Below, piece by piece: positions 3,723 to 30,531 of a stretch of DNA of 32,000 nucleotides. Made by a program: the position numbers and the translations under genes. The stretch is from Mycobacterium asiaticum (GTDB lineage: Bacteria; Actinomycetota; Actinomycetes; Mycobacteriales; Mycobacteriaceae), in contig NZ_LZMH01000023.1 in NCBI RefSeq assembly GCF_001673635.1, positions 88,229 to 120,228 on the forward strand. The letters run 5' to 3'. Under the pieces are notes generated by a model. It searched no databases and had not been told where the DNA came from. It saw nothing but the letters and a program-made list of their open reading frames with translations. Within the stretch, counting starts at the first letter, position 1, and every line of letters begins with the position of its first letter.

Positions 3723-3744
3723 CGCCTACCCCCCGTACCCCCGG

Positions 3745-8453: not shown

Positions 8454-8484
8454 ATTGATAACGCAGCGACGATAGTGAGTGCAG

Positions 8485-13487: not shown

Positions 13488-14831
13488 ATGCTGGAGAGCC
13501 TGGCCGCCGTGGTGGGCTCGAACCACGTCATCACCGACCCGGACGTGCTGGCCGGCCGGAGCGTCGACCACACCGGCCGGTACCGCGGCCGGGCTAGTGC
13601 GCTGGTACGTCCCGGCTCGGCGGAGGAGGTCGCCGAGGCGTTGCGGGTGTGCCGCGATGCGGGCGCGTACGTGACGGTGCAGGGCGGCCGGACGTCGCTG
13701 GTGGCCGGCACGGTACCTGAACACGACGACGTGCTGCTGTCCACCGAAAGGCTCAGTGCGATAAGCGATGTGGACACCGCGGAGCGGCGAGTGACGGCCG
13801 GTGCCGGTGCCACGCTGGCGGCGGTGCAGGGTGCCGCCGCGGCGGCGGGGCTGTTGTTCGGCGTTGATCTGGCCGCGCGTGACACCGCGACCCTCGGCGG
13901 CATGGCGTCGACGAATGCCGGCGGCTTGCGGACCGTCCGCTACGGCAACATGGGCGAGCAGGTGCTGGGACTGGATGTGGCATTGCCGGACGGCTCGGTG
14001 GTACGCCGGCACTCTGCGGTACGGCGTGACAACACCGGCTACGACCTGCCGTCGCTGTTCGTCGGAGCGGAGGGCACTCTCGGGGTGATCACCGCGCTGG
14101 ATCTGCGCCTGCACCCCACCCCGTCGCACCGGGTGACCGCGGTGTGTGGATTCGACGACCTGGACGCGCTGGTCGAGGCGGGCCGGGTGTTCGCCGACGT
14201 CGACGGAATCGCGGCGCTGGAGTTGATCGACGCCCGGGGCGCGGCGCTGACGGGGGAGCACGCCGGGGTCGGCGCCCCGGTTCCCGGTGACTGGCTGTTG
14301 CTCGTCGAATTGGCCGGCGACCACGACCAGACCGACCGGCTGGCTGAGCTGCTCGACGGCATTACGGCTGCCCGAGGTTCGGAACCGGCCGTCGGCCTGG
14401 ATGTGGCTGCGCAGCAACGGCTGTGGCGGGTGCGCGAGGCGCTGGCCGAGGTGCTTGGCGTGTACGGGCCGCCGCTGAAATTCGATGTGTCACTGCCGTT
14501 GTCGGCGGTGAACGGGTTCGCCCGGGACGCGGTCGCGCTGGTAGGGCGCCACGAGTCCGATGCGCTGCCGGTGCTGTTCGGTCACATCGGGGAGGGCAAC
14601 CTGCACCTGAACGTGCTGCGTTTCTCGACCGAGCGCGAGGCGGCGCTGTACGCCGAGATGATGGACCTGATCGCCGGCTGCGGCGGCAACGTCAGCTCCG
14701 AACACGGCGTCGGGACCCGCAAGCGGCCCTACCTGTCGATGTCGCGTGAGCCCGCCGACATTGCGGCGATGCGGACCGTCAAGGCGGCGCTGGACCCCAC
14801 GGGTTATCTCAACCCGGCCGTGCTCTTCTAA
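13488..14831 (+). CDS. FAD-linked oxidase (GlcD / D-lactate dehydrogenase-like), 447 aa
   Basis: The FAD-binding PCMH-type N-terminus is VRPGSAEEVAEALRVCRDAGAYVTVQGGRTSLVAG. It also has NAGG and a C-terminal SSEHGVG motif. It is possibly the Rv0161 counterpart, but that is memory only. Confidence 0.82.
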   Translation: MLESLAAVVGSNHVITDPDVLAGRSVDHTGRYRGRASALVRPGSAEEVAEALRVCRDAGAYVTVQGGRTSLVAGTVPEHDDVLLSTERLSAISDVDTAERRVTAGAGATLAAVQGAAAAAGLLFGVDLAARDTATLGGMASTNAGGLRTVRYGNMGEQVLGLDVALPDGSVVRRHSAVRRDNTGYDLPSLFVGAEGTLGVITALDLRLHPTPSHRVTAVCGFDDLDALVEAGRVFADVDGIAALELIDARGAALTGEHAGVGAPVPGDWLLLVELAGDHDQTDRLAELLDGITAARGSEPAVGLDVAAQQRLWRVREALAEVLGVYGPPLKFDVSLPLSAVNGFARDAVALVGRHESDALPVLFGHIGEGNLHLNVLRFSTEREAALYAEMMDLIAGCGGNVSSEHGVGTRKRPYLSMSREPADIAAMRTVKAALDPTGYLNPAVLF

Positions 14832-15376
14832 TCCGCACCTTTGATGCCGACAGCGTGCCGCAGCTGCGCCAGGAACTGCTCGCCGTCGTCGCTGCGCACC
14901 ACGTAGTGCGAGATGGCGATCCGGATGACGGTGGCCGCCTTCACCGCGGCGTTGGGGCCTGGCAGCAAGCGCTGCAAACCCGCGCGCATCTCCGGGATCA
15001 CGCCCGACATCTGAGCAATAACGTGCTCGGGTTCGATGTCGACCATGCGCACGCCGGAGTAGGAGTACTGGTAGTCGACGATGAATCGCAGTGCGGCGTC
15101 CAGCCTTTCGACGCCCTTCAGCCCGGCGGTAGCTTTAGCCAAACCGCGTTCGAAGATCTCGCGCTCGTAGCGCGAGAACGCCGAGAGCAGTTCTTCCTTG
15201 GAGGCGAACCAGCGGTACAGCGTCGGCCGCGACACCCCGGCCTGGGTGGCGACCTCGGAAAGGCTGAGTTTGGTCTTGCCGCTGCGGGCCAGCACCTCGG
15301 CCGTGGCGGCCAGGATCCGCTGACGGGTCGAGGTGTCGGTGTCCGGGATTTCGTCCACCTGGGCATTCTGGCTCAT
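14828..15376 (-). CDS. TetR family transcriptional regulator, 182 aa
   Basis: From ATG 15376 the protein has the HTH RQRILAATAEVLARSGKTKLSLSEVATQAGVSRPTLYRWFASKEELL. The start overlaps the upstream gene's stop (ATGA at 15373-15376). The stop overlaps the convergent FAD-oxidase stop (CTAA at 14828-14831). Confidence 0.88.
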   Translation of the reverse strand: MSQNAQVDEIPDTDTSTRQRILAATAEVLARSGKTKLSLSEVATQAGVSRPTLYRWFASKEELLSAFSRYEREIFERGLAKATAGLKGVERLDAALRFIVDYQYSYSGVRMVDIEPEHVIAQMSGVIPEMRAGLQRLLPGPNAAVKAATVIRIAISHYVVRSDDGEQFLAQLRHAVGIKGAD

Positions 15377-16218
15377 GAGTTCTCCCCCGGTGGCTTGTTG
15401 GGCTTGGGTGGCCTGGGTCGTACCAGCACAGACTGCTGGATGGCGCCCACCGCGCTGTGTTCGTCGAACAATGTCCCGATTGTCGTTCCGATGCCGTCCG
15501 GCCCGTAGCTGGTTTCCGCCCGGATGCCGATCCAGTCTCCCTCCGGGACCCGGAACACGTGCACGGCCAGGTCCGTGTTGAGGAAAGTCCACTTGCTGAT
15601 GTCGAGCTTGCTGCCGATGCCGTTGGCGCAGTCGGCCACCGCGAACAGCCGCTCCAGCTGGGTCATGGTCTCGCCGGCGACCAGGTCGGCGATCGGTCTG
15701 ATCCACGATTCGCCCGGACCCGCTGTCAGCGGCTCGGTCAGCCAGAGCCACTCGAGGCTGTGCACGTAGTTGCGGTCCCAGTTCATCGCTTTGATGTTGC
15801 GGTTGTACGCCTCAGACGGCGGACGGGGCAGCGGGGTGGGTGCGTGCACCACGGCGGCGGTGTCGAGCTTCTGCAATCGCCAGCCGCTGGCCCGAGCGAC
15901 CGGGCGGGGTTGGCCGTCGGGGGCCAGCGCCCGCATCTCGGCGGTCACCAGCTCGATCTGGCGGCCGCCGCGGTCCACGGAGGAACGCACCCACAGGTCG
16001 CCCTCGGCCGGGACCGGGCCAAGCAGGTCGATGACCACCCGGCTGAGCCGGGTATCCTCGCGCGCCTGGCAGCGTTCCAGCGCGCGGACCAGCAACCCTG
16101 ACACCGGGCCGCCGTGCTGGATGGCCGCCGACCAGGTGCCCCGGGCCAGGTCGGTGGCCCGGAACTTTTCGCCCGCGGCGTCGTCGGCGTCGATCAGCTC
16201 GTAGTACGAGTCGGACAT
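15373..16218 (-). CDS. TesB-like double hotdog thioesterase family protein, 281 aa
   Basis: ATG 16218 has AGAGGTG upstream. The sequence (HGGPVSGLLVRALE, two hotdog-like halves, about 280 aa) fits the actinobacterial thioesterase family (4HBT_3-type). The longer ORF-track N-terminus is Arg/Pro-rich and was rejected. Confidence 0.65.
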   Translation of the reverse strand: MSDSYYELIDADDAAGEKFRATDLARGTWSAAIQHGGPVSGLLVRALERCQAREDTRLSRVVIDLLGPVPAEGDLWVRSSVDRGGRQIELVTAEMRALAPDGQPRPVARASGWRLQKLDTAAVVHAPTPLPRPPSEAYNRNIKAMNWDRNYVHSLEWLWLTEPLTAGPGESWIRPIADLVAGETMTQLERLFAVADCANGIGSKLDISKWTFLNTDLAVHVFRVPEGDWIGIRAETSYGPDGIGTTIGTLFDEHSAVGAIQQSVLVRPRPPKPNKPPGENS

Positions 16219-16236
16219 GGCACCTCTTTGCTCGGG

Positions 16237-16269
16237 GGTTCGCTCGCGGTTCGCTTCGGGTTCGCTCAG
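16237..16269. repeat. Three phased copies of GGTTCGCT at 11-nt spacing (ggttcgctcgc / ggttcgcttcg / ggttcgctcag)
   Basis: Read directly. The copies start at 16237, 16248 and 16259 and fill most of the 47-nt gap between the SMP-30 stop (16266-16268) and the thioesterase start (16218). On the mRNA strand this is 3 x AGCGAACC. Confidence 0.7.
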
Positions 16270-17087
16270 GGCAGCCCGGCGCCGGGGACGTCCACCCGCA
16301 CGGCGTCCAGCCGGGACAGGCGGGTTCCCGCCAGTCGCTTGGGGTAAGCGTCGGTGCTGGACAACAGAAACAGGGTGCGGCGTTCCGGCCCGCCGAGCGC
16401 GCACGCGATCGCGACCCGGTCGCCCATGTCGATGCGGTCGGTCACCTCGCCGCCCTCGGTGATCCGCTCGAACTGGTGTGTCAGCGTCATGGCTGTCCAT
16501 ACTCCGCCCCCGGCGTCGAGCGCGATGCCGTCGGGCGGCCCGTCGAGCTTGTCGGCGAATATTCTTCTGTCGCTGAGGCTCCCGTCCGGGTCGATCGTGA
16601 ACGCGGTGAGCCGCCGGCCCATCGACTCGGCGACGATGAGCGTCCTGCGGTCCGGCGTGATCACCATGCCGTTGGGAAACTCGAGGTCGGCGGCGACGAC
16701 GGTCGCGTGATCATCGGGGTCGAGGCGAAGGATCACCCCGCCTTCATATGCCTGCGAGCCGATGTAGGCACGACCGCTGTCGTCGACGACCATGTCGCCG
16801 AGGTCGGCCGGAGCAAGTTCGGACAGGTCGACCAGGGGGAGAACGGTCTCGCCGTCGTAGCACAGCACCATCCGGTCCTCGGCCGACACGATCAGCAGAC
16901 AGCCGTCGGGCCGGAAGCCCAGGCCGGACGGCGAGTGTCCCGGCAACGGGACGGTGGTCAGCGAGCCACGGATGTCGGATGTGTGGACGGCTTCACCGAG
17001 CATGTCCGAGAACCACAGCAGCCCCTCGAACCAGCGCGGACCCTCGCCGAAGCAAAAGCCGTGGGCCAGCGGCGTAGGCGGCGCCAT
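16266..17087 (-). CDS. SMP-30 / gluconolactonase / LRE family protein (lactonase-like beta-propeller), 273 aa
   Basis: From ATG 17087 the protein reads MAPPTPLAHGFCFGEGPRWFEGLLWFSD..., followed by repeated propeller-blade motifs (PDG, NG, DxxG). No convincing SD is present (only AAAGGT abutting the ATG), so the transcript may be leaderless or the start may differ. Confidence 0.8.
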   Translation of the reverse strand: MAPPTPLAHGFCFGEGPRWFEGLLWFSDMLGEAVHTSDIRGSLTTVPLPGHSPSGLGFRPDGCLLIVSAEDRMVLCYDGETVLPLVDLSELAPADLGDMVVDDSGRAYIGSQAYEGGVILRLDPDDHATVVAADLEFPNGMVITPDRRTLIVAESMGRRLTAFTIDPDGSLSDRRIFADKLDGPPDGIALDAGGGVWTAMTLTHQFERITEGGEVTDRIDMGDRVAIACALGGPERRTLFLLSSTDAYPKRLAGTRLSRLDAVRVDVPGAGLP

Positions 17088-17089
17088 AC

Positions 17090-17120
17090 CTTTACAAATC
17101 ACTGCAAAAGTGTCATGCAC
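17090..17120 (+). promoter_or_regulatory. Conserved AT-rich motif, copy A: CTTTACAAAT-cactgca-AAA-g-TGTCA-tGCac
   Basis: Of 31 aligned positions, 20 are identical in all three copies (A, B, C). Copy A begins 3 nt upstream of the SMP-30 start codon, in the 117-nt divergent intergenic region. Confidence 0.65.
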
Positions 17121-17149
17121 CACGGGCTGCCGTGTCAACGCGCATGCAA

Positions 17150-17180
17150 CTTTACAAATAGTGAGCAAAGTGTCACGCTG
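17150..17180 (+). promoter_or_regulatory. Conserved AT-rich motif, copy B: CTTTACAAAT-agtgagc-AAA-g-TGTCA-cGCtg
   Basis: Copy B lies exactly 60 nt downstream of copy A. Its TGTCA ends 29 nt before GTG 17205 and 38 nt before TTG 17214. It can be read as a -35 TTTACA, a 17-nt spacer, a TGn extended -10 and the hexamer CACGCT. Confidence 0.65.
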
Positions 17181-17204
17181 AGCCGTGAGCTGCCGGAACG
17201 AGGG

Positions 17205-18095: not shown

Positions 18096-18099
18096 TTCC

Positions 18100-19020
18100 A
18101 TGCGATTCACCATCACCCATCCGATGCACAGCCACCCGTATAACCCGGAGCTGGCCAGTGGGTCGGGTATCGCGACCGTGGCGGGAGCGGCGGAAAAGGC
18201 GGGATTTCACGGTTTCGGGTTCACCGACCACCCCGCCCCGTCCCAACGCTGGCTGGACGCCGGCGGACACGATGCCCTGGATCCGTTTGCGGCCCTTGGC
18301 TTTGCGGCGGCACACACGACGACCCTGCGCCTGATTCCGAACGTGGTGGTGTTGCCCTACCGAAACCCGTTCGTGGTGGCCAAATCCGGGATGACACTGG
18401 ATTTGCTTTCGGGTGGCCGGTTCACGCTGGCGGTGGGGGTGGGTTACCTGAAGAAGGAATTCGCCGCGCTTGGGGTGGATTACGACGAGCGCGCCGAGTT
18501 GTTCGAAGAAGCGCTGGAGGTGATTCGCGCGGTCTGGACCGGTGACGACATCACCTATGAGGGAAAGCATTTCACCGCACGCGGGATCACCGCGCATCCA
18601 CGTCCGAGCTCCCAGCCGCATCCACCGATCTGGATCGGCGGCAACACGGCGGCGGCGCGCAAGCGGGTCGCCGAGCATGGTGATGGTTGGTGTCCCTTTG
18701 CGGCACCGGCGGGTTTGGCGCGCACCGCGGGCACCGCGGTCATCGATTCGGTGGATGCCCTCGCGTCCGGCATCGACGACATGCGGCGGCGGTGCGAAGC
18801 GGCCGGCAAGGACCCCGCGGCCGTCGATATCACCTTCACCAACTTCGAGGGCGGCAGCCCCGCGGCCGACGACTTCAACGCCGACGCATACCTGGCCGGG
18901 GTGGAAAAGCTTGCGGCCCTGGGCGTTACCTGGCTACAGGTCGGGCTCCCCGGCGACAGCGTGTCGCATGCGGTGGAAGTCATCGACCGGTTTGGTTCGC
19001 TGGTAATCGATGTGATCTGA
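18100..19020 (+). CDS. Luciferase-like monooxygenase (LLM) class oxidoreductase, probably F420-dependent, 306 aa
   Basis: This is a TIM-barrel LLM pattern (GFHGFGFTDH, LPYRNPFVVAK, GRFTLAVGVGY, PPIWIGGN) resembling the mycobacterial F420-dependent LLM subfamily. It starts 4 nt after the tesB-like stop. Confidence 0.8.
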   Translation: MRFTITHPMHSHPYNPELASGSGIATVAGAAEKAGFHGFGFTDHPAPSQRWLDAGGHDALDPFAALGFAAAHTTTLRLIPNVVVLPYRNPFVVAKSGMTLDLLSGGRFTLAVGVGYLKKEFAALGVDYDERAELFEEALEVIRAVWTGDDITYEGKHFTARGITAHPRPSSQPHPPIWIGGNTAAARKRVAEHGDGWCPFAAPAGLARTAGTAVIDSVDALASGIDDMRRRCEAAGKDPAAVDITFTNFEGGSPAADDFNADAYLAGVEKLAALGVTWLQVGLPGDSVSHAVEVIDRFGSLVIDVI

Positions 19021-20190
19021 ATGGATTTCGCGCGCGTATCACTCTCCGATGAAGACGAGGCTTTCTACCGGCAGACCCGGGCCTTCGTCACCGAACACGT
19101 CACCGACGACGTGCGCCGCCGAAACCGCGAGTTCGGTGAGAACTTCGACGAAGGCGTGCATCTGGCATTGGGTGAAGCGGGTTACCTGGCTGGCGATTTC
19201 AAGCCCGAATCCGAGGGCGGCTTCAGCGCGGTGCGCCGGCGCATCTTCAACCTGGAGATCGGCCGGGCGCACACCCCTTGGTATCACTGGGGCACCACGT
19301 CAGCGGTCGCGCGATTGGTAGCGGAGTTCGCTCAACCGGAACTGGTGGACATGGTGCTGCCGGGGGTGCTTTCCGGGCATGTCCGGCTGTGTCTGGGCTA
19401 CACCGAACCCGAGGGAGGATCCGACGTCGCCACCTGCAAGACCCGCGCGGTGCGAGAAGCGGATGGATCGTGGGTCATCAATGGCTCCAAGATGTTCACC
19501 TCGAACGCGCAGAACGCCAAATACGTCTTCCTGCTTACCAACACCGATCCCCAAGGGCTGAAACACCGGAACCTCACCATGTTTCTGGTCCCGCTGGATT
19601 CGCCTGGCATCGAGATCCAGGGGATCCGCACCCTCGACGGCGATCGCACCAACATCGTCTTCTACAGCAACGTCCGGGTCGACGACCTGTACCGGATCGG
19701 CGGGGTGAACGATGGCTGGACGGTGATGCGGTCGGCGCTCGCGGCCGAACACGGCCTGACACAGGGCGATGACGAGGGCTTACAGGACGCTGGAACCATG
19801 GCAGGACACGGCATGCTGATGGCGGAGGCGGTCGACCGGGTCGCCGCTTTGGTCTCCATCGCCGACGACTCCGCCCAGTACCGCCTCGGACGCGATTTCG
19901 CCCGTGTCGAGGCGGCGTTGTCCACGCCCAGCATGTACGGCCGCGTCGCGATCGGGCAGACGATGCGTGATATTGCCGCCGATCTGATGGATCTGTTGGG
20001 GCCGGCATCGGCCTTGCCGACCGAGGTCAAGGGGTCACCGGATGGCGGTGTCACCGAACACCTCTTCCGGCTGTCCCTGCCGATGGGAATTTACGGGGGC
20101 AGCCTGGAAGTGTTCCGCAACATGATCGCCCAGCAGGAACTGCGGCTGGGGCGGCCGGCTTATGGCGCGGGTAAATCCGCCTCGACCTGA
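19021..20190 (+). CDS. Acyl-CoA dehydrogenase, 389 aa
   Basis: ACAD motifs are present (GYTEPEGGSDVA, INGSKMFTSNA). The ATG immediately follows the LLM stop. The C-terminal motif is IYGGSLEV rather than the usual YEGT (see findings). Confidence 0.85.
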   Translation: MDFARVSLSDEDEAFYRQTRAFVTEHVTDDVRRRNREFGENFDEGVHLALGEAGYLAGDFKPESEGGFSAVRRRIFNLEIGRAHTPWYHWGTTSAVARLVAEFAQPELVDMVLPGVLSGHVRLCLGYTEPEGGSDVATCKTRAVREADGSWVINGSKMFTSNAQNAKYVFLLTNTDPQGLKHRNLTMFLVPLDSPGIEIQGIRTLDGDRTNIVFYSNVRVDDLYRIGGVNDGWTVMRSALAAEHGLTQGDDEGLQDAGTMAGHGMLMAEAVDRVAALVSIADDSAQYRLGRDFARVEAALSTPSMYGRVAIGQTMRDIAADLMDLLGPASALPTEVKGSPDGGVTEHLFRLSLPMGIYGGSLEVFRNMIAQQELRLGRPAYGAGKSAST

Positions 20191-20843
20191 ACCTTTTCCG
20201 TATCGAAGCTCAAATAGTCTCGGATGGCCGCGCTTTCGGGTAGCGGTTCGTCGTAGCTCCAGGCGATGTCCTCGATGACCGTGCCGCCTTGGTCGATGGT
20301 GGCCGCCCAGTATGTGGCGACGCCCTTGTAGTTGCAGTACGACGACGTTTCGGTCTTGCGGAGCAAGTCGGTTCGGACGTGCTTCGGTGCCACGTAAAGC
20401 CTTGGGGCGAGCGCGGTCTCGAAGACGATCACGGTGTCGTCGGTGTCCACCAGCGGGATGCCGTCGATGGCGACGCGCAGGCGTCTGGTGGTCGGACGGC
20501 AGTCGACGCGGTGATAAGGGTTCGGCGGATAGTGCACCAGTTTGCGGCCCTCCTCGAACCAGGTGTCGACCGCGTGCCACGGAACGTGCACGTATCCGGG
20601 CGCTTCGGGTTCGGGCTCGGTAGGCAGGCCGGTGATACCTTCGGCGGGAAATGCATAGCTCAGTGGGCGATTTCGCCGGTGCACCAGCAACGCCTTCTCG
20701 GTGTCGATGACGGTCCGCCCGTGGCGGACGGCCTGAATGCGGCGCGGATGGGGTTCGATGTATACCACCTCGGCGGGTATCGGCGGCGCGAAGCGCCCCG
20801 CTGGATCGGCACTCAGTGGGCCGCGGCCGGCGACCAGGCTCAT
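20160..20843 (-). CDS. DUF427 domain protein (two DUF427-like halves), 227 aa
   Basis: ATG 20843 has GGGAGGAA upstream. A repeated pattern (...TVIDTEKALLVHRRNRPLSYAFP... and ...PLVDTDDTVIVFETALAPRLYVAP..., CNYKGVATYW) is typical of DUF427. The 3' end overlaps the convergent ACAD gene by 31 nt. Confidence 0.7.
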   Translation of the reverse strand: MSLVAGRGPLSADPAGRFAPPIPAEVVYIEPHPRRIQAVRHGRTVIDTEKALLVHRRNRPLSYAFPAEGITGLPTEPEPEAPGYVHVPWHAVDTWFEEGRKLVHYPPNPYHRVDCRPTTRRLRVAIDGIPLVDTDDTVIVFETALAPRLYVAPKHVRTDLLRKTETSSYCNYKGVATYWAATIDQGGTVIEDIAWSYDEPLPESAAIRDYLSFDTEKVQVEADLPAP

Positions 20844-20972
20844 GGCGTTCCTCCCATTCCTCCCGGTGTGTAACCGTCCACCCAAACATCCCCTTGAACG
20901 ACGAGGATCCCGCCGCCGGTGGCAAGACGATGTCGGCGGCCCTCAAATGCCGTTGCCGCTAACACTGTCGGA

Positions 20973-21758
20973 TCACCACGCTTTGGAGCCATGTCGACCC
21001 GCACCATCGGCGAATCGCTGTGCGCCTGCCTGCAACTCGGATGCCGAACGTGACAGGCTGGTGAACTCGAAGTCCATGGCCTCGGCCTCGCTCCGGCCCC
21101 ACTGATAGAGCATCGACATACGGTCGGAGCGCATGCACAGTTGCGGCAGCGCCGCAAGTTCGGCGGCAAGCTCCTCGGCGGCGGCTCGGGCGGTGCCAGT
21201 CGGCACAACGCGATTCGCCAAGCCGATGGCCAGCGCCTCGGTCGCGTCAACCGGGCGCCCGGTGAGGATCAGATCCATCGCCCGGCTGTGCCCGATCAGC
21301 CTTGGGAGCCGGACCGTACCGCCATCGATCAACGGTAATCCCCAGCGTCGGCAGAACACGCCGAAGGTTGCATCCTCCTCGACCACTCGCAAATCGCACC
21401 ACACCGCCAGCTCTAGGCCGCCAGCGACGGCATAGCCACTGACAGCGGCGACCACCGGTTTGGACAGGACCATCCGGCTAGGACCCATCGGCCCCGGACC
21501 GGTCGGGTTCACCGGGTTGAAGTCACCTGTCTCGGCTCCTTTCAGATCCGCGCCCGAGCAGAAATTTCCGCGATCCCCCCACAGCACAGCCACCGACGCG
21601 GAATCATCATTGTCGAACTCCTCGAACGCGGCGACGAGCGCGGCGGCAGCAGATCCGTTGACCGCGTTCCGGGCCTCCGGACGATCCATGATCACGGTGG
21701 TCACTGCCCCGTTCTTCTCGACCCGAATGCCGCCGGTGCTCTTGGTTTCAGTCGTCAT
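20973..21758 (-). CDS. Enoyl-CoA hydratase/isomerase (crotonase) family protein
   Basis: Crotonase motifs are present: RPEARNA, FCSGADLKG, AAVSGYAVAGGLELAVWCD. ATG 21758 (AGGTG upstream) is preferred over GTG 21764. Confidence 0.88.
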   Translation of the reverse strand: MTTETKSTGGIRVEKNGAVTTVIMDRPEARNAVNGSAAAALVAAFEEFDNDDSASVAVLWGDRGNFCSGADLKGAETGDFNPVNPTGPGPMGPSRMVLSKPVVAAVSGYAVAGGLELAVWCDLRVVEEDATFGVFCRRWGLPLIDGGTVRLPRLIGHSRAMDLILTGRPVDATEALAIGLANRVVPTGTARAAAEELAAELAALPQLCMRSDRMSMLYQWGRSEAEAMDFEFTSLSRSASELQAGAQRFADGAGRHGSKAW

Positions 21759-21845
21759 GCCCACACCTACGACGGTATCCGCACCGCCCGGACCGGAAGG
21801 GTAAATGCCCCGGTGCCCGCAGCACTACGGCGTCGGATTCGGACG

Positions 21846-21858
21846 TCGAACACTTCGA
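21846..21858. promoter_or_regulatory. Candidate operator palindrome TCGAA-CAC-TTCGA
   Basis: It has 5-bp arms (7 with one mismatch) and sits in the 220-nt divergent region between the crotonase and CoA-transferase genes. Confidence 0.2.
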
Positions 21859-21978
21859 TGGTCGGCGTGATCGGCAAGTCGCCGGTGACACCGTGCTTTG
21901 GACTTCGGTGACCGACCCGCGCGAACCAGAGGCGTTGCCGGACGATCCACCGTTGTAATGCGCGGTTAGGGTTCATTC

Positions 21979-23148
21979 ATGGCCGGACCGGTTGAAGGCA
22001 TCAGGGTCGTCGAACTCGGAGTTTGGGTGGCGGGGCCGGCGACGGGCGGCATCCTGGCCGACTGGGGCGCGGATGTCATCAAGATCGAGCCGCCGAGCGG
22101 TGATCCCGGACGGCTTTTCGGGCGGATGCTGGGTTGCGAGCTGGGGGTGAACCCGCCGTTCGAGATGGACAACCGCTCCAAGCGCAGCATCGTGCTGGAC
22201 CTCACCACCGAGTCCGGTCGCGGCACCGCCCTCGAATTGCTCGCCGAGGCAGACGTTTTCATCACCAACGTGCGACCGGGGGCGCTGCAGCGGCTGGGGC
22301 TGGATTACGAGTCGGTGTCCGCCGCCAACCCCCGACTGGTCTACGGACTGATCACCGGCTACGGCGACAGCGGGGCCGACGCCGACCGGGCGGCCTACGA
22401 CGTGGCGGCCTTCTGGTCGCGCGGCGGCATCGCGCATCTGCTCACCCGGCCCGGTGACACACCGCCCTTCCAGCGTGGCGGCATGGGCGACCATTCGGCC
22501 GGGATGACCCTGGCGGCGGCGGTCTGCGCGGCGCTGCTGGCCCGTGAGCGCACCGGCTCCGGGCAACTGGTGACCACCTCGCTCTACCGCCAGGGCGCCT
22601 ACACCGTGAGCTTCGACCTCAACACCTACCTGCTCACCGGTCAACCGATCGCGATCGGACAGCGCGCGACCATGGGCAACCCGTGCATGAACAATTACGC
22701 CGCGGGCGACGGGCGGCGCTTCTGGATCGTCGGCCTCGAGGTCGACCGGCACTGGCCCGCCCTGTGCCGAGTGGTGGGCCGGACCGAGTGGCTGGACGAC
22801 CCGAGGTATGCCGACGCGCGCGGCCGTGCCGTCAACGCAGTGCAACTCATCGCCGAACTGGACGAGATCTTCGCGACCAAGCCGCTGGCCGAGTGGTCGG
22901 AACTGTTCGCGGCCGAGCCGGACTTCTTCTGGTCGCCGATCAATTCCATCGAGGACGTCGTCGCCGACGAGCAGTTCCACGCCGCGGGCGGGATCGTCGA
23001 CGTACCGGACGGCGATTCCAGCGTGCCGATGGTGGCCACCCCGGCGGATTTTCGCGGAACGCCCTGGTCACCGCGGTCGGTAGCGCCGACCCTCGGCCAG
23101 CACACCGACGAGGTTCTCGCTGAGCTGGCCGTCCGGCGGGACTCCTGA
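21979..23148 (+). CDS. Family III CoA-transferase (CaiB/BaiF family), 389 aa
   Basis: The N-terminus GIRVVELGVWVAGPATGGILADWGADVIKIEPPSGDP and the central YDVAAFWSRGG... pattern are typical of family III CoA-transferases and racemases. Confidence 0.88.
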   Translation: MAGPVEGIRVVELGVWVAGPATGGILADWGADVIKIEPPSGDPGRLFGRMLGCELGVNPPFEMDNRSKRSIVLDLTTESGRGTALELLAEADVFITNVRPGALQRLGLDYESVSAANPRLVYGLITGYGDSGADADRAAYDVAAFWSRGGIAHLLTRPGDTPPFQRGGMGDHSAGMTLAAAVCAALLARERTGSGQLVTTSLYRQGAYTVSFDLNTYLLTGQPIAIGQRATMGNPCMNNYAAGDGRRFWIVGLEVDRHWPALCRVVGRTEWLDDPRYADARGRAVNAVQLIAELDEIFATKPLAEWSELFAAEPDFFWSPINSIEDVVADEQFHAAGGIVDVPDGDSSVPMVATPADFRGTPWSPRSVAPTLGQHTDEVLAELAVRRDS

Positions 23149-23161
23149 GCGCCCGCGACAG

Positions 23162-23192
23162 CTTTACAAATCTCCCTAAAACTGTCACGCTG
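23162..23192 (+). promoter_or_regulatory. Conserved AT-rich motif, copy C: CTTTACAAAT-ctcccta-AAA-c-TGTCA-cGCtg
   Basis: Copy C matches copy B at 23 of 31 positions. It lies in the 79-nt gap upstream of the nine-gene P450 operon, and its TGTCA ends 40 nt before ATG 23228. It is followed by the hairpin CGCTGTC-caatgccct-GACAGCG (23188-23210). Confidence 0.65.
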
Positions 23193-23227
23193 TCCAATGC
23201 CCTGACAGCGCGGCGAGGAAGGGATCG

Positions 23228-23773
23228 ATGGTCACTCCAACGTTCGACATCAGCGGGCACCCCGCGAACCGTGCTCGCCGGACCTCCGTCGACGGCGAGG
23301 TGCTACGGCATCGGCTGGACGTATTCGCGGCCCGGCCGGATGACGTCGTGCAGACGGCCGGCGGGTGGCTATTCGACCGGGTGATGGCGGGCTGGCAGGT
23401 GAATGTGATGCTGCCGGGCGGCGGCGATGACAGGTCGCTGCGCATCCTCGGTGTGCAGGTGCTGGACCTGGAATCGGAGCTGGACCTTTCGGCACCACTG
23501 AGCCAGAGTCTCGCCGTCAGCGGCGAAGCGTTCATCGCCCACGGGTGCCTGCGTGAAAAGATGCGCAAGGCCATGGGCAACCGGCTGGTCGAGGTCGCGC
23601 TGTGGGGTCAAGGTTGGCCCCTCGGTACCGACCGCAGCCTCGTCCGGACCGAGTACCAGCTCAGCGCGGCGGCCCGGGCCTTTAAGGGGCAGGCGTTACG
23701 CGCAGCCGGAATCGCCTACCAGTCAATCGATCCCAGCGAAACCTTGTTCACCGACTCAGCTTGGCTGGGCTGA
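23228..23773 (+). CDS. Conserved hypothetical protein, 181 aa (weak, degenerate PIG-L/LmbE-like N-terminal motif)
   Basis: It has a strong SD (GAGGAAGGGA) and high GC3. The segment AARPDDVVQTAGGWLFDRVMAGWQVNVML resembles the AHPDD-x4-GG-x8-G-x-V-x-V signature of LmbE/PIG-L deacetylases, but with Arg in place of the metal-binding His. Confidence 0.6.
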   Translation: MVTPTFDISGHPANRARRTSVDGEVLRHRLDVFAARPDDVVQTAGGWLFDRVMAGWQVNVMLPGGGDDRSLRILGVQVLDLESELDLSAPLSQSLAVSGEAFIAHGCLREKMRKAMGNRLVEVALWGQGWPLGTDRSLVRTEYQLSAAARAFKGQALRAAGIAYQSIDPSETLFTDSAWLG

Positions 23774-23782
23774 CGCATTGCG

Positions 23783-24487
23783 ATGAAGAAGTATTTCGGC
23801 CACACCCTGCTCTACCTGCACGAGACGATCGAGCTGGGCTCCGGGCGAAGCGACCGCTTCACCGAGGTCTTCGTCGACACCTATCAGCCCTTGATGGAGG
23901 AGCTGGGCGCTCGGCTCTTCTCGATCTGGCAGAGCACGCCCTACAACGGGCACTGGCCGCAAGTGACGATCATCTGGGAGATCGACGCGTTCGGCGATTA
24001 TGCCCGGATCGGGGCCGCGCAGGCCCGCGGCGGCAGCCACGAGGCCGCGGCCGGCAAATGGGCGGCGTTTCTGGCCGACATCGGCGCCAAGGGGGAGGGC
24101 CGGATCATGTACGCCGGACCGAGCAACAGGCCCCTGGCCCAGCTACGCGAGACCAATTTCGATGCGTCACTGGTCATTCAGGAGATCATGCAGACCAAGC
24201 CGGGCCGGCAGGACGACTACATCCGCGAACTGGAACGGTTGTATGTGCCATGGTCGGAGCGCACTGGCAAGCATTGGCTCGGTTCCTTCACCACAACCTT
24301 CCGGTTCAACGAAGTGATCCACTACTGGGCGCTGGAGGGCGGTTGGGAATGCTTCGCCAACCACTACCCGTCCTGGAAGGACAGCCCGCCCGCCGAGATC
24401 GTCACCTGGATGAGCGTGGCCCCGGCGCTGCGTGACGGTTGGGAGGACTCCATCCTGCAGGCGCTACCGCCGTCGCCACTGCAGTGA
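23783..24487 (+). CDS. NIPSNAP-like / dimeric alpha-beta-barrel protein (two repeats), 234 aa
   Basis: Two similar halves each contain a W...W(E/A)(I/L) pattern (FSIWQSTPYNGHWPQVTIIWEIDAFGDYARI and LGSFTTTFRFNEVIHYWALEGGWECF), as in NIPSNAP domains. This family call is made by eye only. Confidence 0.5.
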   Translation: MKKYFGHTLLYLHETIELGSGRSDRFTEVFVDTYQPLMEELGARLFSIWQSTPYNGHWPQVTIIWEIDAFGDYARIGAAQARGGSHEAAAGKWAAFLADIGAKGEGRIMYAGPSNRPLAQLRETNFDASLVIQEIMQTKPGRQDDYIRELERLYVPWSERTGKHWLGSFTTTFRFNEVIHYWALEGGWECFANHYPSWKDSPPAEIVTWMSVAPALRDGWEDSILQALPPSPLQ

Positions 24488-25692
24488 GTTTCTCCTACGA
24501 CCCGTTCGACGCGCGTGTGATGGCCGACCCGCTGCCGTACTACCGCACGCTGCGCGACGAGCATCCGCTGTATTACATGCCGCAGTGGGACACCTACGCG
24601 TTGTCGCGCTTCGACGACATCTGGCGGGTGCTGGAAGTCAACGACGGCACCTTCGTCGCCTCGGAAGGAACGCTGCCGGCGGCATCTGTTCTGGCCCAGC
24701 ACAATTCCGGGCCGATCCCCGACCCGCCACTGCATCCGCTACCGTTCCATGCGGTGTTCGACGCGGACCTGTACGGCGAGATCCGGCGTGCCCACTCACA
24801 ACCGTTGCGGCCCAAGTGGGTCGCGTCGCTGGAGGGCAGGATCCGTGCGTTGGCCAATGAACGCCTCGACGAGCTGATCCCGCGTGGTTCCTTCGATCTG
24901 ACCCAGGACTACGGCGGCATCGTGGTCGCCTCGATCGTCTGTGAATTACTGGGAATCGCAACGGATCTCGCTCCGCAGGTATTGGCCGCCGTCAATGCCG
25001 GCAGCCTGGCTGAGCCCGGCGAAGGCGTCGATACCGCGGAGGCCCGGCCGAACTACCTGGGCTTCCTGGTCCCAGTGGTCGAGCGGCGTCGCGCGGAGCG
25101 CAACGGCGCGTTGCCCGTCGTCGACGGACTGCTCGCCTACCGGCTGCCCGACGGCAGCGCTCTCGACGACACCGAAGTAGCCACCCAGATGCTGTGCATC
25201 TTCATCGGCGGCACCGAAACCGTGCCCAAGATCGTCGCCCACGGACTGTGGGAACTCAGCCGGCGGCCCGAGCAACTGGCGGTGGTCCGCGCCGACCCGA
25301 ACGCCAACGTGCCGGTCGCCCGCGAAGAGATGATCCGCTATTGCGCACCGGCACAATGGTTTGCCCGCACCGCGCGCAAGCCGTTCACCTTGCACGACCA
25401 CACCATCGCGCCGGGACAACGCATCATCACGCTGCTGGCATCGGCCAACCGAGACGAGCGGGAGTACCCCGACCCCGACCAGTTCATCTGGGACCGCCCC
25501 ATCAAGCGCTCCCTGGCCTTCGGGCGGGGGCAGCACTTCTGCATCGGCTACCATCTGGCCAGACTGGAAGTCGCCGTGCTGGTTCAGGAATGGCTGCGGC
25601 GGGTTCCCGACTTCGGCGTCCGCGAGCGCGACGCCACCCGGTTGCCCTCCAGCTTCCAGTGGGGCTGGAACAACATTCCGGTGGAGGTGTGA
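24484..25692 (+). CDS. Cytochrome P450, 402 aa
   Basis: It has the heme-ligand loop FGRGQHFCIGYHLA (FxxGxHxCxG), the I-helix FIGGTETV, the ExxR motif EEMIRY, and the N-terminal YDPFDARVMADPLPYYRTLRDEHPLYY. GTG 24484 overlaps the upstream stop (GTGA). Confidence 0.92.
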   Translation: MSFSYDPFDARVMADPLPYYRTLRDEHPLYYMPQWDTYALSRFDDIWRVLEVNDGTFVASEGTLPAASVLAQHNSGPIPDPPLHPLPFHAVFDADLYGEIRRAHSQPLRPKWVASLEGRIRALANERLDELIPRGSFDLTQDYGGIVVASIVCELLGIATDLAPQVLAAVNAGSLAEPGEGVDTAEARPNYLGFLVPVVERRRAERNGALPVVDGLLAYRLPDGSALDDTEVATQMLCIFIGGTETVPKIVAHGLWELSRRPEQLAVVRADPNANVPVAREEMIRYCAPAQWFARTARKPFTLHDHTIAPGQRIITLLASANRDEREYPDPDQFIWDRPIKRSLAFGRGQHFCIGYHLARLEVAVLVQEWLRRVPDFGVRERDATRLPSSFQWGWNNIPVEV

Positions 25693-25693
25693 C

Positions 25694-26662
25694 GTGTGGT
25701 CCTACCGGATCATCGCTCCCTACCTCTTCGAGCGGACCACGATTGCGGACAAGACGCCCGAGTGCCTGGTGGATCGCCAAGTGCTGCTACGGTTTCAGGC
25801 CGCTGGTATCTGTGGCAGCGATTTGCCCGCGTTTCGCGGCGCCAAGGGACGGCTGCCGGGTGACGACGGTCGCAGCGCCGCGGAGATGGACGGCTTCCCC
25901 ATTCACGAAGTGGCCGGTGAAGTCATTGCCAGCCGGCATCCCGACCACCGGCCGGGTGACCGCGTGGTGGGCTGGGCGTCGAGCTTCGACGGCCTGATGG
26001 AGCGCGTAATGAGCGACGGTGACGGACTGGCGCGCTACGACAGCGCCCTCACCCCCGCGCAGGCGGTTGGTTTGCAACCGCTGGCCTGTGTGCTGTACGC
26101 ATGCGAACAGTTGCCGGACCTCGCCGGACGCCACGTGGCCATCATCGGCCAAGGCTCCATCGGACTGCTCTTCTCCTACGTGGCCAAGGCCGCCGGCGCC
26201 CGGCGGGTGACCGGGATCGATCCGGTCGACCGCGAAAAGATCTCGTACGCCTACGGTGTCGACGACGCGGTGCGGGCCACCAGCGACAGGTGGGTAAGCC
26301 GGCTCGCCCCCGAGGACCGGCCCGACGTGGTGGTCGAAGCGGTCGGCCATCAGGTGGCAACCCTGGGGCACGCCATCGAAGCCGCCGCACCGGGCGGCAC
26401 CGTGTTCTACTTCGGGGTCGCCGATGACCCGACGTATCCGATCGATATGCGGGCCATGCTGCGCAAGAGCCTGACCCTGAAATCCGGTGTCACGCTGGAC
26501 CGTCGGCGTGTTCTGGAAGCAGCGAGCCGATTCGCGGCCGAACACCCGGGTCTGCTCGAGAATTACCTCACCCACACGTTCCCCGTCGACCAGGTCTCCG
26601 AGGCGTTTGAGCTGGCCTGCCAACCGGACCCCGGGCGAGTCAAGATCGCGGTCACGGTATGA
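25694..26662 (+). CDS. Medium-chain (zinc-type) dehydrogenase/reductase, 322 aa
   Basis: It has catalytic-zinc-type motifs (GICGSDL, IHEVAGEV) and the Rossmann motif IIGQGSIGLL. No four-Cys structural-zinc loop is present. GTG 25694 lies 1 nt after the P450 stop. Confidence 0.8.
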   Translation: MWSYRIIAPYLFERTTIADKTPECLVDRQVLLRFQAAGICGSDLPAFRGAKGRLPGDDGRSAAEMDGFPIHEVAGEVIASRHPDHRPGDRVVGWASSFDGLMERVMSDGDGLARYDSALTPAQAVGLQPLACVLYACEQLPDLAGRHVAIIGQGSIGLLFSYVAKAAGARRVTGIDPVDREKISYAYGVDDAVRATSDRWVSRLAPEDRPDVVVEAVGHQVATLGHAIEAAAPGGTVFYFGVADDPTYPIDMRAMLRKSLTLKSGVTLDRRRVLEAASRFAAEHPGLLENYLTHTFPVDQVSEAFELACQPDPGRVKIAVTV

Positions 26663-27399
26663 GTGTGTTCCGCAACAACTCCAAGTCACCCATCTGGGGC
26701 GGCTGGGTGACCGGGCCAACCCAGCACGGACCGCAGGAATTCGCCCGTGCCGGTTACGATTACGTCGGATTCGACACCCAGCACGGGTATCTCGACGACG
26801 GCGACGTGGCGAACCTGCTGCGCCACCTCGAACACGTTCCGATCGCGACCGCGGTTCGGCTGCCCAACGCCGACCCGGCACCCATCGGGCGCGTGCTGGA
26901 CGCCGGCGCCGACGCTGTCATCATCGCCATGATCGAGTCAGCCGACCAGGCCGCGGCCGCGGTGGCTGCCACCCGCTACCCCCCGGCCGGCGTACGCAGC
27001 TTCGGCCCGCTGCGGGCCGGCCTGGGCCTCGATCCTGGCGCCCTGCAATCCCGGGCGAACGTATTCGCCATGATAGAGACGGCCGCGGCTCTGCAGGATG
27101 TGGAAAACATATGCGCGGTAACGGGTTTGACTGGCATCTACCTCGGACCCGCCGACTTGGCCATCTCGTTGGGTGCGAACGTTTCAGGGGCTACCAAGGA
27201 TGAGCGGGTGCTCGAGGCGATCACCCGAACCCGCGAGGTGGCGGCCGCCGCGGGATTGGTCACCGGTATCCATGCCAGTGACGGCAAGACCGGTAACGCG
27301 ATGGCGGAGCTCGGCTTTGAGATGATCACCCTGGCATCGGAGTCGCAGGCCCTGCGCCGGGGAGCGGCCGAACACCTGCGCGAGGCGACCGGCAAATGA
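26659..27399 (+). CDS. HpcH/HpaI family aldolase (class II, 2-keto-3-deoxy-acid aldolase-like), 246 aa
   Basis: The pattern WGGWVTGP...AGYDYVGFDTQHG...VRLP...DAGADAVIIAMIES...YPPAGVRSFGP...MIET...GIYLGPADL matches the HpcH/HpaI aldolase/citrate-lyase fold. It overlaps the upstream stop in an ATGA. Confidence 0.85.
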   Translation: MSVFRNNSKSPIWGGWVTGPTQHGPQEFARAGYDYVGFDTQHGYLDDGDVANLLRHLEHVPIATAVRLPNADPAPIGRVLDAGADAVIIAMIESADQAAAAVAATRYPPAGVRSFGPLRAGLGLDPGALQSRANVFAMIETAAALQDVENICAVTGLTGIYLGPADLAISLGANVSGATKDERVLEAITRTREVAAAAGLVTGIHASDGKTGNAMAELGFEMITLASESQALRRGAAEHLREATGK

Positions 27400-27797
27400 G
27401 CGATATCGAGGCGATCCGGAGCCTGCTGTCGGAGTACGCGCTGGCCCTCGACGTGGGTGACTTCGACGGGGCCCTGCAACTGTTCGCCGCCGATGGCGAA
27501 TTCCAGGTGTACGGCAAGACGTTCAAAGGCCGCGACGACATCGGCGGTATGTTTCGCGCGGCACCCCATGGCCTGCACCTGACCGGGGCCTCACGCATCG
27601 ACATCGACCACGACACCGCCACGGCGCGATCCCAGGTGCTGTTCGTCAATGTTGTTCACCAAGCCGTCACCCAGCAGCTTCGTCCGGCTCTCTACGATGA
27701 CGACCTGACCCGCCACGACGGCCGATGGCTGTTCGGCCGCCGTCGGTGCCGGTTCGTCACCGGTACCGGACTCAGCGACACACCGGAGGCCACGTAG
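27396..27797 (+). CDS. SnoaL-like / NTF2-fold protein, 133 aa
   Basis: IEAIRSLLSEYALALDVGDFDGALQLFAADGEF is typical of SnoaL_4-type NTF2 proteins. It overlaps the aldolase stop in an ATGA. Confidence 0.75.
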   Translation: MSDIEAIRSLLSEYALALDVGDFDGALQLFAADGEFQVYGKTFKGRDDIGGMFRAAPHGLHLTGASRIDIDHDTATARSQVLFVNVVHQAVTQQLRPALYDDDLTRHDGRWLFGRRRCRFVTGTGLSDTPEAT

Positions 27798-27799
27798 CG

Positions 27800-28519
27800 A
27801 TGACGCGAGTCGCATTGGTCACCGGAGCCGCCGGCGGGCAGGGCTGGGCGATCGTGCAGCGGCTGCGAGACCGCGGCTACTTCGTCGCGGCCGTCGACGT
27901 CCGAGCCGACGAACTGGGCGCAGCGGTGAGGAGAGCAGCGGACGACGCGGTGCTCGGCATCGCGCTGGACGTCACCGATCAGCGGCAGTGGGAGGCCGCC
28001 GTCGCCGCTACCGTCGACCGATTCGGCGGACTGACGACGCTGGTCAACAACGCCGGCCTGCTGCACCGCGCCGCACTCGCCGACGAGACCCCAGCGGACT
28101 TCGAAAACTCCTGGCGGGTGAACTGTTTCGGCGCGTTCCTGGGTATGCAAGCCGCGCTGCCATATCTGCAGGAGGGCGCGGCGATCGTCAACATCTGCAG
28201 CACCGGCGCGGTCCGCCCGTTCCCGCAGCACTGTGCCTATGGCTCGGCGAAGTGGGCGCTGCGGGGCCTGACCCAGACGGCCGCAGCCGAACTCGGCCCA
28301 GCCGGCATCCGCGTGAACGCCGTCCTGCCCGGACCGATCGCCACGCCGATGCTCGACGACGCCGTCCAGCAGCGGCTTGCCGCGGTAGCGATGTTCGGCC
28401 GGCTGGGCCGTCCCGCCGAAGTCGCCGATGCAGTCGCCTTCCTGGTCTCCGAGGAGGCGTCGTTCATCACCGGGGCTGAGTTGGTCGTCGACGGTGGGCA
28501 ATGCCTGCAGATCCGCTGA
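27800..28519 (+). CDS. Short-chain dehydrogenase/reductase, 239 aa
   Basis: It has TGAAGGQG, NNAG, the catalytic S...YGSAKWA, and a PGPIATPM motif. ATG 27800 lies 2 nt after the previous stop. Confidence 0.88.
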   Translation: MTRVALVTGAAGGQGWAIVQRLRDRGYFVAAVDVRADELGAAVRRAADDAVLGIALDVTDQRQWEAAVAATVDRFGGLTTLVNNAGLLHRAALADETPADFENSWRVNCFGAFLGMQAALPYLQEGAAIVNICSTGAVRPFPQHCAYGSAKWALRGLTQTAAAELGPAGIRVNAVLPGPIATPMLDDAVQQRLAAVAMFGRLGRPAEVADAVAFLVSEEASFITGAELVVDGGQCLQIR

Positions 28520-29427
28520 GCGTCAGGCAGGTCGACCGGTTGGACCCGGAGTTGCGCCAAGTCGCGGTGACCCGCACCGTCTTCACCGCCGACGCGATCC
28601 CGCTGATCCGTGAGTCGATGAACCAGCGGCGCGCGCAGGCGCACCATGACGCCGCGGGCGTGCGGGTCGAACATGAGGTTGCCGCCAGTGTGCCGGTGCG
28701 CATCTATCGATGCGGCGGCACACAGGCGCCGGCGGTCGTCTACTGCCACGCGGGCGGGTTTGCGCTGGGCAACCTCGATACCGACCACCGGCAGTGCCTG
28801 GAACTCGCCCGCCGCGGACGCTGCTGCGTGGTGTCCGTCGACTACCGGCTGGCACCCGAGCACCCTTTCCCGGCAGCCCTGGATGACGCCGCCGCGGTGC
28901 TGAACTGGCTGGCGGACAACGCAACCCGACTGGGCATCGACTCAGCAAGGATGGCCGTGGCGGGCAGCAGCGCGGGCGGCGCCCTCGCCGCGGGCCTGGC
29001 GCACCGGGCTGCGGACGGCAAGTCACCGCCGGTGGTATTTCAGCTGCTCCATCAACCCGTACTCGACGATCGCCCCACCGCGTCCAAAACCGAATTCCGG
29101 GCGACTCCCGCGTTCGACGGCGAGGGCGCCGAATTGATGTGGCGCCACTATCTGGCCGGTCAGTCACCGAGTGCACAGTCGGTGCCGGCCCGGCGATCCC
29201 AAATGAACCGCATGGCACCGGCTTTGATCACTTGCGCCGAGATCGACCCGTTTCGCGACGAAGCGGTGGAGTACGGGTGGCGGCTGCTGCGCGCCGGTGT
29301 CTCCGCCGAACTGCACGTCTTTCCCGGCGCCTGTCACGGGTTCGATTCGCTGCTGCCGGAATGGCATGCGTCGCAGCGCCTGTTCGCGCTGCAAGGCGAC
29401 GCCCTGTCGCGGGCGTTCAGAAGGTGA
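28501..29427 (+). CDS. Alpha/beta hydrolase, hormone-sensitive-lipase-type esterase, 308 aa
   Basis: It has the oxyanion motif HAGGF (an HGGG variant), the nucleophile elbow GSSAGG, and the C-terminal DPFRDE and HGF motifs. The start overlaps the SDR 3' end by 19 nt. Confidence 0.82.
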   Translation: MPADPLSVRQVDRLDPELRQVAVTRTVFTADAIPLIRESMNQRRAQAHHDAAGVRVEHEVAASVPVRIYRCGGTQAPAVVYCHAGGFALGNLDTDHRQCLELARRGRCCVVSVDYRLAPEHPFPAALDDAAAVLNWLADNATRLGIDSARMAVAGSSAGGALAAGLAHRAADGKSPPVVFQLLHQPVLDDRPTASKTEFRATPAFDGEGAELMWRHYLAGQSPSAQSVPARRSQMNRMAPALITCAEIDPFRDEAVEYGWRLLRAGVSAELHVFPGACHGFDSLLPEWHASQRLFALQGDALSRAFRR

Positions 29428-30517: not shown

Positions 30518-30531
30518 GTTGGAATACAACC

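Follow-up and report, generated by a model that had tools for sequence, protein, structure and literature searches.

The window considered here, by which is meant the whole 32,000-nucleotide stretch of Mycobacterium asiaticum DNA that was analysed (ca 66% G+C), contains an operon with a P450 gene that is preceded by a short sequence motif, other copies of which stand some 6 kb away before other genes. The question then arises as to whether these copies form a real family of control elements and, if so, what they do and which protein would act through them. The initial annotation had proposed that the copy before the P450 operon joins the two loci into one regulon under a TetR-family protein. 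It had also seen in the leader of that operon, then counted at nine genes where 23228-29427 holds eight open reading frames, two mutually exclusive RNA structures.

That the copies belong together is evident from their rarity. The pattern CTTTACAAAT-N7-AAAnTGTCA is found at exactly three places in the window, 17091, 17151 and 23163 (copies A, B and C), where no occurrence is expected by chance, and TTTACAAAT-N7-AAANTGTCA gives three matches, all on the plus strand, even when three mismatches are tolerated, and none in 100 dinucleotide shuffles. A position weight matrix (PWM) built from 18 orthologous sites, with a reporting threshold of 8 bits, scores copies A, B and C at 42-50 bits (copy C at 49.8 bits) and returns no fourth or weaker site at or above 8 bits in the 32-kb window; the top score in 20 shuffled windows is 10 bits. 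Copies B (CTTTACAAATAGTGAGCAAAGTGTCACGCTG) and C (CTTTACAAATCTCCCTAAAACTGTCACGCTG) are identical at 23 of 31 positions and, since their spacer bases differ at seven of seven, they are not recent duplicates. From the end of TGTCA to the start codon there are 40 nt for copy C (ATG 23228) and 38 nt for copy B (TTG 17214). This identity, these distances and both inverted repeats of the P450 leader are present in the window just as first described, and the third copy is, given three exact matches against none in shuffles together with its orthologous conservation, a true member of a cis-element family. Elsewhere in the window, the genes with a PE-PPE domain number four (302-5669 and 9113-10540), and an unusually A+T-rich intergenic stretch between two PE-PPE genes (3723-3890) contains a one-mismatch TTTTCAAAT with no full motif.

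Orthologous loci were collected by way of the 181-residue protein that is encoded first in the P450 operon and by way of the TetR protein. Taken as a set, 12 lineages of Mycobacterium and Mycolicibacterium hold all three copies at orthologous positions, with adjacent intergenic DNA that diverges. Two M. asiaticum lineages, M. camsae and M. intermedium have copies A, B and C; M. marinum and M. terramassiliense keep B and C, copy A having diverged; and M. decipiens retains A and B next to the TetR gene, most of the surrounding gene island being lost. Copy C is conserved before the orthologous operon in every lineage examined. The 29 distinct sites in the 12 lineages give the consensus A-n-CTTTACAAAT-N7-(A)AAgTGTCACGCTG, in which CTTTAC and TGTCA are invariant at 29 of 29 sites, partly by construction, as several bases were fixed by the collecting pattern. 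The AAA after CTTTAC and the CGC after TGTCA are kept in 90-97% of the sites, and the spacer is free. In a seven-species alignment of copy C the blocks CTTTACAAA and TGTCACGCTGTC are invariant, as are CTTTACAAA and TGTCACGCTG(TC) across the alignments, the spacers, flanks and leader lengths being variable. In this regard, the near-equal distances to the two start codons, offered at first as a sign of a promoter-operator module, lose their force: the distance from motif to start is 36-118 nt for copy C and 11-60 nt for copy B in other species, a three- to five-fold variation, and the match of 40 and 38 nt is a coincidence of the M. asiaticum window. Long copy C leaders are found in M. marinum and M. 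terramassiliense, and in one M. asiaticum lineage a G+C-rich insertion of ca 80 nt lengthens the leader that runs from copy C to the start codon (L003 9885-9965).

Table 1. Features of the window that bear on the motif module, with the basis of each assignment
Feature	Position	Strand	Basis or remark
Copy A, motif across -10, +1 and first codons of the leaderless divergent operon	17090..17120	+	
Copy B, promoter-operator module (operator presumed)	17150..17180	+	Before the TesB-like / F420-LLM / acyl-CoA dehydrogenase operon 17214-20190
Copy B elements: -35 17151-17156, TGT-CACGCT 17171-17179, predicted +1 G 17187	17151..17187	+	Same module geometry
Copy C, 31-bp motif CTTTACAAAT-N7-AAACTGTCACGCTG	23162..23192	+	Core promoter and presumed operator of the P450 operon; exact match, PWM, alignment
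-35 hexamer TTTACA, copy C promoter	23163..23168	+	Orthologous hexamer at -36..-31 of M. marinum TSS 462927
Extended -10 TGT and -10 CACGCT (A at position 2, T at position 6)	23183..23191	+	17 bp after the -35; orthologue at -16..-8 of the measured TSS
Predicted +1, G	23199	+	Transferred from M. marinum; 29-nt 5'UTR
Inverted repeat CGCTGTC 23188-23194 / GACAGCG 23204-23210	23188..23210	.	Left arm is part of the motif
Target operon, eight ORFs	23228..29427	+	Pfam, synteny
Promoter of the divergent operon: -35 TTGACA 17138-17133, 18-bp spacer, -10 GACACT 17114-17109, 6 nt, leaderless GTG 17102-17100	17100..17138	-	
Divergent operon: SMP-30/gluconolactonase-like (SGL) 16266-17102, acyl-CoA thioesterase 15373-16200, TetR 14828-15376	14828..17102	-	Pfam, synteny
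TetR-family regulator, candidate motif-binding repressor	14828..15376	-	PF00440

As to sites further afield, a scan of genome contigs used an N11 spacer between CTTTACAAA and TGTCA, where the motif has N12, and its outcome (82 chance-like matches, one Mycobacteriaceae record) is thereby uninformative on distribution. A metagenome scan with the same N11 spacer, equally uninformative on distribution, gave five matches, among which the contigs L091/L094 and L092 are natural variants, shorter by one base, that adjoin TetR homologues.

The first function that can be assigned to the motif is that of a promoter. Copies B and C and all orthologues of the B and C type read TTTACA-N14-TGT-CACGCT, the layout of a sigma-70-type (SigA) promoter with an extended -10, for which a -35-like hexamer, a spacer of 16-18 bp, TGn, a -10 with A at position 2 and T at position 6, and a start 6-8 nt past the -10 are characteristic. 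In M. marinum, a transcription start site (TSS) mapped by Cappable-seq, 462927(+), stands 93 nt before MMAR_0397, the orthologue of the 181-residue gene (PMC8022548 Table S2, where sequences span -70 to +11), and our own count on the M. marinum locus confirmed this distance. The sequence listed upstream of the site has TTTACA at -36 to -31 and CACGCT at -13 to -8, such that transcription starts 8 nt past CACGCT, and the context of the start reads CACGCT-GTCCGAT-G(+1) in M. marinum and CACGCT-GTCCAAT-G in the window. The suggestion that copy C acts as a promoter module is borne out by this start site: by orthology, copy C serves the P450 operon as its core promoter, G 23199 being the predicted +1, and the predicted 5'UTR contains the Shine-Dalgarno sequence GAGGAAGGG at 23215-23223. 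In the portion of the PMC8022548 start-site table that was covered, only the two island promoters carry the motif, and for M. marinum no start is recorded at copy B or at the TetR gene. Rearranged loci in other species provide three independent fits to the same start point, as the TesB-like gene of M. intermedium reads CACGCT-N7-GTG, which leaves no room for a leader, and the second P450 genes of M. holsaticum and of the MAG L101 both read CACGCT-N6-GTG.

Expression data for the same species show the two loci responding together. RNA-seq ratios of hypoxia over normoxia, which refer to one species and one condition (PMC8022548 Table S1), place the motif-bearing operons at 4-6-fold up in hypoxia. 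The values are 2.5 for MMAR_0390, 4.1 for MMAR_0391, 5.1 for MMAR_0392 and 2.1 for MMAR_0393, and, from the P450 operon, 4.65 for MMAR_0397, 4.83 for MMAR_0398, 4.56 for cyp191A3 (the M. marinum orthologue of the P450 in the window), 5.66 for MMAR_0400 and 6.23 for MMAR_0402. The CoA-transferase gene MMAR_0396, which sits between both loci with a leaderless start site of its own, is not induced (1.16); MMAR_0388 stands at 0.92, adhE at 0.58 and the TetR gene MMAR_0389, likewise not hypoxia-induced, at 0.61. Moreover, the copy C start site 462927 is itself 5.7-fold higher in hypoxia (FDR 8.6e-7, PMC8022548). The co-induction that had been predicted for the two loci is, therefore, seen in one orthologous species under one condition, with the gene between them not induced, and on this M. 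marinum basis the motif module links the two loci into one small regulon. The hypoxia induction as such could be due to another factor.

Copy A differs from copies B and C in lying across the start of a divergent operon. On the minus strand, the 12 lineages share TTGACA-N18-GACACT-N6-GTG followed by ATTTGTAAAG, with a spacer of variable sequence and with GTG replaced by ATG in two lineages. The M. marinum counterpart MMAR_0391 has a leaderless start site, 457804(-), at distance 0, its +1 being the G of the GTG (PMC8022548 Table S2), with TTGACA at -36 to -31 and GACACT at -12 to -7. Only ATG or GTG occurs at the leaderless start positions, in agreement with the finding that an ATG or GTG at the 5' end is required, and is enough, for leaderless translation in mycobacteria (PMC4633059). 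In the window, GTG 17102-17100 is in frame with ATG 17087 and lies five codons further upstream, adding V-I-C-K-G, which is encoded by the left block of copy A; the SGL gene most likely starts at this leaderless GTG, which corrects the start at ATG 17087. The arrangement resembles the mycobacterial leaderless promoters and 5' small ORFs described by Shell et al. 2015 (PMC4633059), in which a -10 element stands 6-7 nt before an ATG or GTG that serves as both +1 and start codon, and differs from that set in that the first four or five codons (V-I-C-K-G) are here the left block of the motif. A candidate promoter for the divergent operon on the reverse strand of copy B, GTGACA-16-TAAAGT from a sigma-70 scan, was set aside, as its final T is not conserved and the measured start site uses TTGACA-N18-GACACT. 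In M. terramassiliense (L007 3270-3355) and M. decipiens (L098 9921-10003) the same leaderless codon opens an ORF of 14-15 codons that ends in an ATGA stop/start overlap with the SGL or the TetR gene, which suggests translational coupling.

Which protein would act at the motif is indicated by the company that the motif keeps. The island TetR is 76-93% identical across slow-growing mycobacteria, and the motif stays with its gene and with its paralogues through five different gene arrangements, standing directly before the gene of the TetR or of a paralogue in M. terramassiliense, M. marinum, M. decipiens, M. holsaticum, L101, L091/L094 and L092. In M. terramassiliense and M. marinum this is an extra site, and in the metagenomic contigs L092 and L091/L094 the motif and the start of the TetR gene are 2-8 nt apart. 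Two TetR paralogues each occur in M. holsaticum and L101; one is divided from a P450 gene by 38 bp of which the motif makes up essentially all, and the other is followed by the motif and a leaderless aldehyde dehydrogenase gene. Where the TesB-like and 181-residue genes are lacking, a single site remains, between SGL and the NIPSNAP-like/P450 operon. It is this association through rearrangement that makes the TetR at 14828-15376, named in the initial annotation as the regulator, the best candidate and a likely repressor, as far as gene neighbourhoods can indicate. The helix-turn-helix (HTH) segment is near-identical among TetR proteins that are 64-86% identical overall, and the motif positions A7-T9, A17-A19 and G27-C28 are conserved without being explained by sigma contacts, which points to a sequence-specific protein. 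The dyad symmetry of the motif is weak (CnTnACA-N14-TGTnAnG, best axis 0.48 as against 0.35-0.46 at other axes), and its half-sites, ca 20 bp apart, are unusually spaced for one TetR dimer. Searches with the TetR of PDB and NCBIfam returned at most generic HTH similarity (UidR, Mce3R and others, at 41 bits or less).

The reading to which these observations lend most weight, and to which we would give a probability of about 0.62, is that the 31-bp module is a core promoter of the housekeeping-sigma type and, most probably, also an operator of the island TetR, gating three transcription units. Copy C would drive the eight-gene P450 operon from a start ca 8 nt past CACGCT at G 23199, and copy B would likewise drive the operon of the TesB-like, LLM and acyl-CoA dehydrogenase genes. 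As copy A overlaps the leaderless operon that ends in the TetR gene, the putative repressor would control its own synthesis. Bound at all three sites, the TetR would shut all three units until released by a ligand, presumably an acyl-CoA or a substrate derived from lipid.

Such a regulon would be of a known class, that of TetR local regulons, and it involves no new regulatory principle. No description of the system was found in the literature searched on the motif, on the island between Rv0161 and Rv0162c, on TetR operators of leaderless genes and on CYP191. The closest comparison is with KstR and KstR2, the TetR repressors of cholesterol catabolism in mycobacteria, where again a TetR regulator has a motif before several lipid-catabolic operons, including P450, acyl-CoA dehydrogenase and CoA-transferase genes, with sites that lie over promoters and with autoregulation. 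KstR has a palindromic operator of 14 bp, TnnAACnnGTTnnA, whereas the present element is ca 31 bp long, asymmetric, unrelated to that palindrome and doubles as -35 and extended -10; in addition, the present regulon is so far local, with three sites within 6 kb, the island being the extent covered. Nor is the island TetR a KstR orthologue by the NCBIfam KstR model, which it matches at 32.5 bits where the cutoff is 280. The Tn10 tetR/tetA arrangement, or 'type I' divergent TetR, shares with the proposed regulon divergent units, a short intergenic region, operators over both promoters and autoregulation, but here the TetR gene comes third in a leaderless operon and is not a lone divergent gene, there is no clear palindrome, and a third operator 6 kb away would control a second operon. 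A long operator of ca 28-30 bp whose outer half-sites stand about two helical turns apart would suit a pair of dimers, as at the two-dimer operators of the QacR/CgmR type; those operators are clearly palindromic, and here only five of seven outer positions are symmetric.

A bolder version of this reading, which we regard as tentative, is that the module is a strand-symmetric, reversible promoter cassette in which a single operator would control two back-to-back promoters that overlap in full. What serves as -35 on one strand (TTTACA or GTGACA) would then be the extended -10 of the other (TGT-AAAGnT or TGT-CACGCT). In M. holsaticum (L099 9963-10000) the 38-bp gap between a TetR paralogue and the second P450 gene, which has a ferredoxin gene with it, holds one motif copy, and on both strands a start codon lies 6 nt past a -10-like hexamer. 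Were the cassette real, this gap would be the whole of it, with both mRNAs leaderless, and its copies would have been redeployed in either orientation before at least six genes, namely SGL, TetR, TesB-like, 181-residue, NIPSNAP-like/P450, second P450 and aldehyde dehydrogenase.

The same observations also lend themselves to a plainer account, in which the motif is a strong promoter architecture shared for the principal sigma factor, with no dedicated repressor, and co-induction follows a global signal such as hypoxia. The measured M. marinum start sites fit the promoter reading, the reverse strand also reads as -35 GTGACA, TGT and AAAGnT (GTGACA-16-TAAAGT in copy B by the sigma-70 scan), and the dyad symmetry of the motif is weak. 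The account is rendered unlikely by some ten conserved positions of no relevance to sigma contacts (C0, A7-T9, A17-A19 and C/G/C inside the -10), by the persistence of the motif beside one TetR lineage through many rearrangements and by copy A, which retains the full motif though its promoter uses other hexamers. Moreover, mycobacterial promoters rarely conserve a -35, which counts against the account as well.

Less probable again is that the motif is bound by another nearby regulator, whether Mce1R (GntR/FCD), encoded downstream of the island, the Rv0158-type TetR at 8479-9108 or a hypoxia-responsive factor. In slow growers, a GntR/FCD gene and an Rv0158-like TetR do flank the island, and the regulon is hypoxia-induced in the M. 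marinum data. Yet Mycolicibacterium loci keep the motif with no GntR gene within 10 kb and with two paralogues of the island TetR, and identity between the Rv0158-like protein and the island TetR is only 30%. From gene order we take it, too, that M. tuberculosis has kept the Rv0158-like TetR while apparently lacking the island, and this counts against a binder of that type.

For the RNA structures, by which two mutually exclusive leader hairpins would regulate the P450 operon after transcription has started, the prospects are poor. Both inverted repeats do exist, that of Table 1 and the alternative pair CTGTCA 23182-23187 / TGACAG 23203-23208, and the right arm falls within a semi-conserved box, GCCC(A)TGACAGCGC, of which a right-arm-like form recurs in four orthologous leaders. 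Against this, both left arms (23182-23194) are upstream of the +1 G 23199 placed by orthology, and hence outside the predicted transcript. The fold, at -15.8 kcal/mol, is to be compared with -12.9 +/- 2.7 for shuffled sequences (z = -1.05), 32 of 200 of which are as stable. Covariation of the arms, which had been named as a check, did not appear in the orthologous leaders, whose alignment folds at -0.82 kcal/mol with no compensatory pair; M. camsae lacks the right arm, and in other orthologues 9 to ca 60 nt separate the two arms; and no Rfam family was found in the window or the leader. In other words, the proposal of two exclusive structures falls, and the invariance of CGCTGTC arises from its being part of the DNA motif and of the -10 region, not from pairing. 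A box GCCC(A)TGAC(n)AGCGC is present in the 5'UTR of the P450 operon (23200-23212 in the window; also L003, L007 and L008) at variable distance from the promoter, and resembles an inverted copy of the TGTCAYG block. A conserved upstream ORF starting at the GCCCATGAC box of the copy C leader was considered and rejected: M. asiaticum-2 has it in frame, M. terramassiliense as a short ORF and M. intermedium out of frame.

Finally, that the motif is a chance similarity or a small mobile repeat of the MITE type, as a short AT-rich sequence in a genome of 66% G+C might be, is extremely improbable given that no chance matches are expected, that the sites are orthologous and fixed in orientation across genera, and that they have neither terminal repeats nor target duplications.

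The genes that the module would control lie in an island (window 13488-30529). The P450 operon encodes, in order, the 181-residue LmbE-fold-like protein, a NIPSNAP-like protein, a P450 of the CYP191 family, a Zn-ADH, an HpcH/HpaI aldolase, a SnoaL-like protein, an SDR and an alpha/beta-hydrolase esterase, and the plus-strand operon at 17214-20190 a TesB-like thioesterase, an F420-type LLM oxidoreductase and an acyl-CoA dehydrogenase; between the two operons are genes for DUF427, an enoyl-CoA hydratase and a family III CoA-transferase (21979-23148). The 181-residue product (23228-23773, plus strand) has no Pfam or NCBIfam match. An AlphaFold2 model of it, at pLDDT 78, is similar to the LmbE/PIG-L deacetylase fold, as in MshB, teicoplanin deacetylase and GalB hydratase, with a TM of ca 0.5. 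As the AHPDD metal motif is not conserved, the protein may be no metal hydrolase.

The borders of the island are read from M. decipiens (L098), which keeps only the TetR, the TesB-like gene and DUF427. There, pntAa/pntAb/pntB, the Rv0158-like TetR and PE genes lie on one side and adhE1, Rv0163/0164-like genes, Mce1R and fadD5 on the other, and from these flanking genes the island is placed between the orthologues of Rv0161 (FAD-linked oxidase) and Rv0162c (adhE1). In M. tuberculosis, the island is presumably missing between Rv0161 and Rv0162c, on a reading of gene order. In non-tuberculous mycobacteria it adjoins mce1R/fadD5/mce1. The slot between DUF427 and the CoA-transferase is variable, being occupied by the enoyl-CoA hydratase in the window (20973-21764, minus strand), by DUF222/HNH (13E12-type) in M. 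asiaticum and M. camsae (cf. L001 7140-8729), by an APH/EcKL-like kinase in M. marinum and by a PE-PGRS gene in M. terramassiliense. A Baeyer-Villiger-type flavin monooxygenase gene (BVMO) lies between the SDR and esterase genes in M. terramassiliense (L007 15312-16802), M. holsaticum (L099 1-545) and L101 (88-1632), and M. marinum lists a 'monooxygenase', MMAR_0403, after the SDR; the window is without such a gene. The order P450-ADH-BVMO-esterase suggests, from gene content, sub-terminal oxidation of an alkyl chain or a ketone.

With this, a control element, a likely repressor and the transcription units are defined for an island of ca 15 kb for lipid or ketone oxidation, with genes for CYP191, an ADH, an aldolase, an SDR, an esterase, thioesterases and an F420-dependent LLM oxidoreductase. 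Through its control element, the island offers a handle on the inducer and the substrate of an orphan P450 family.
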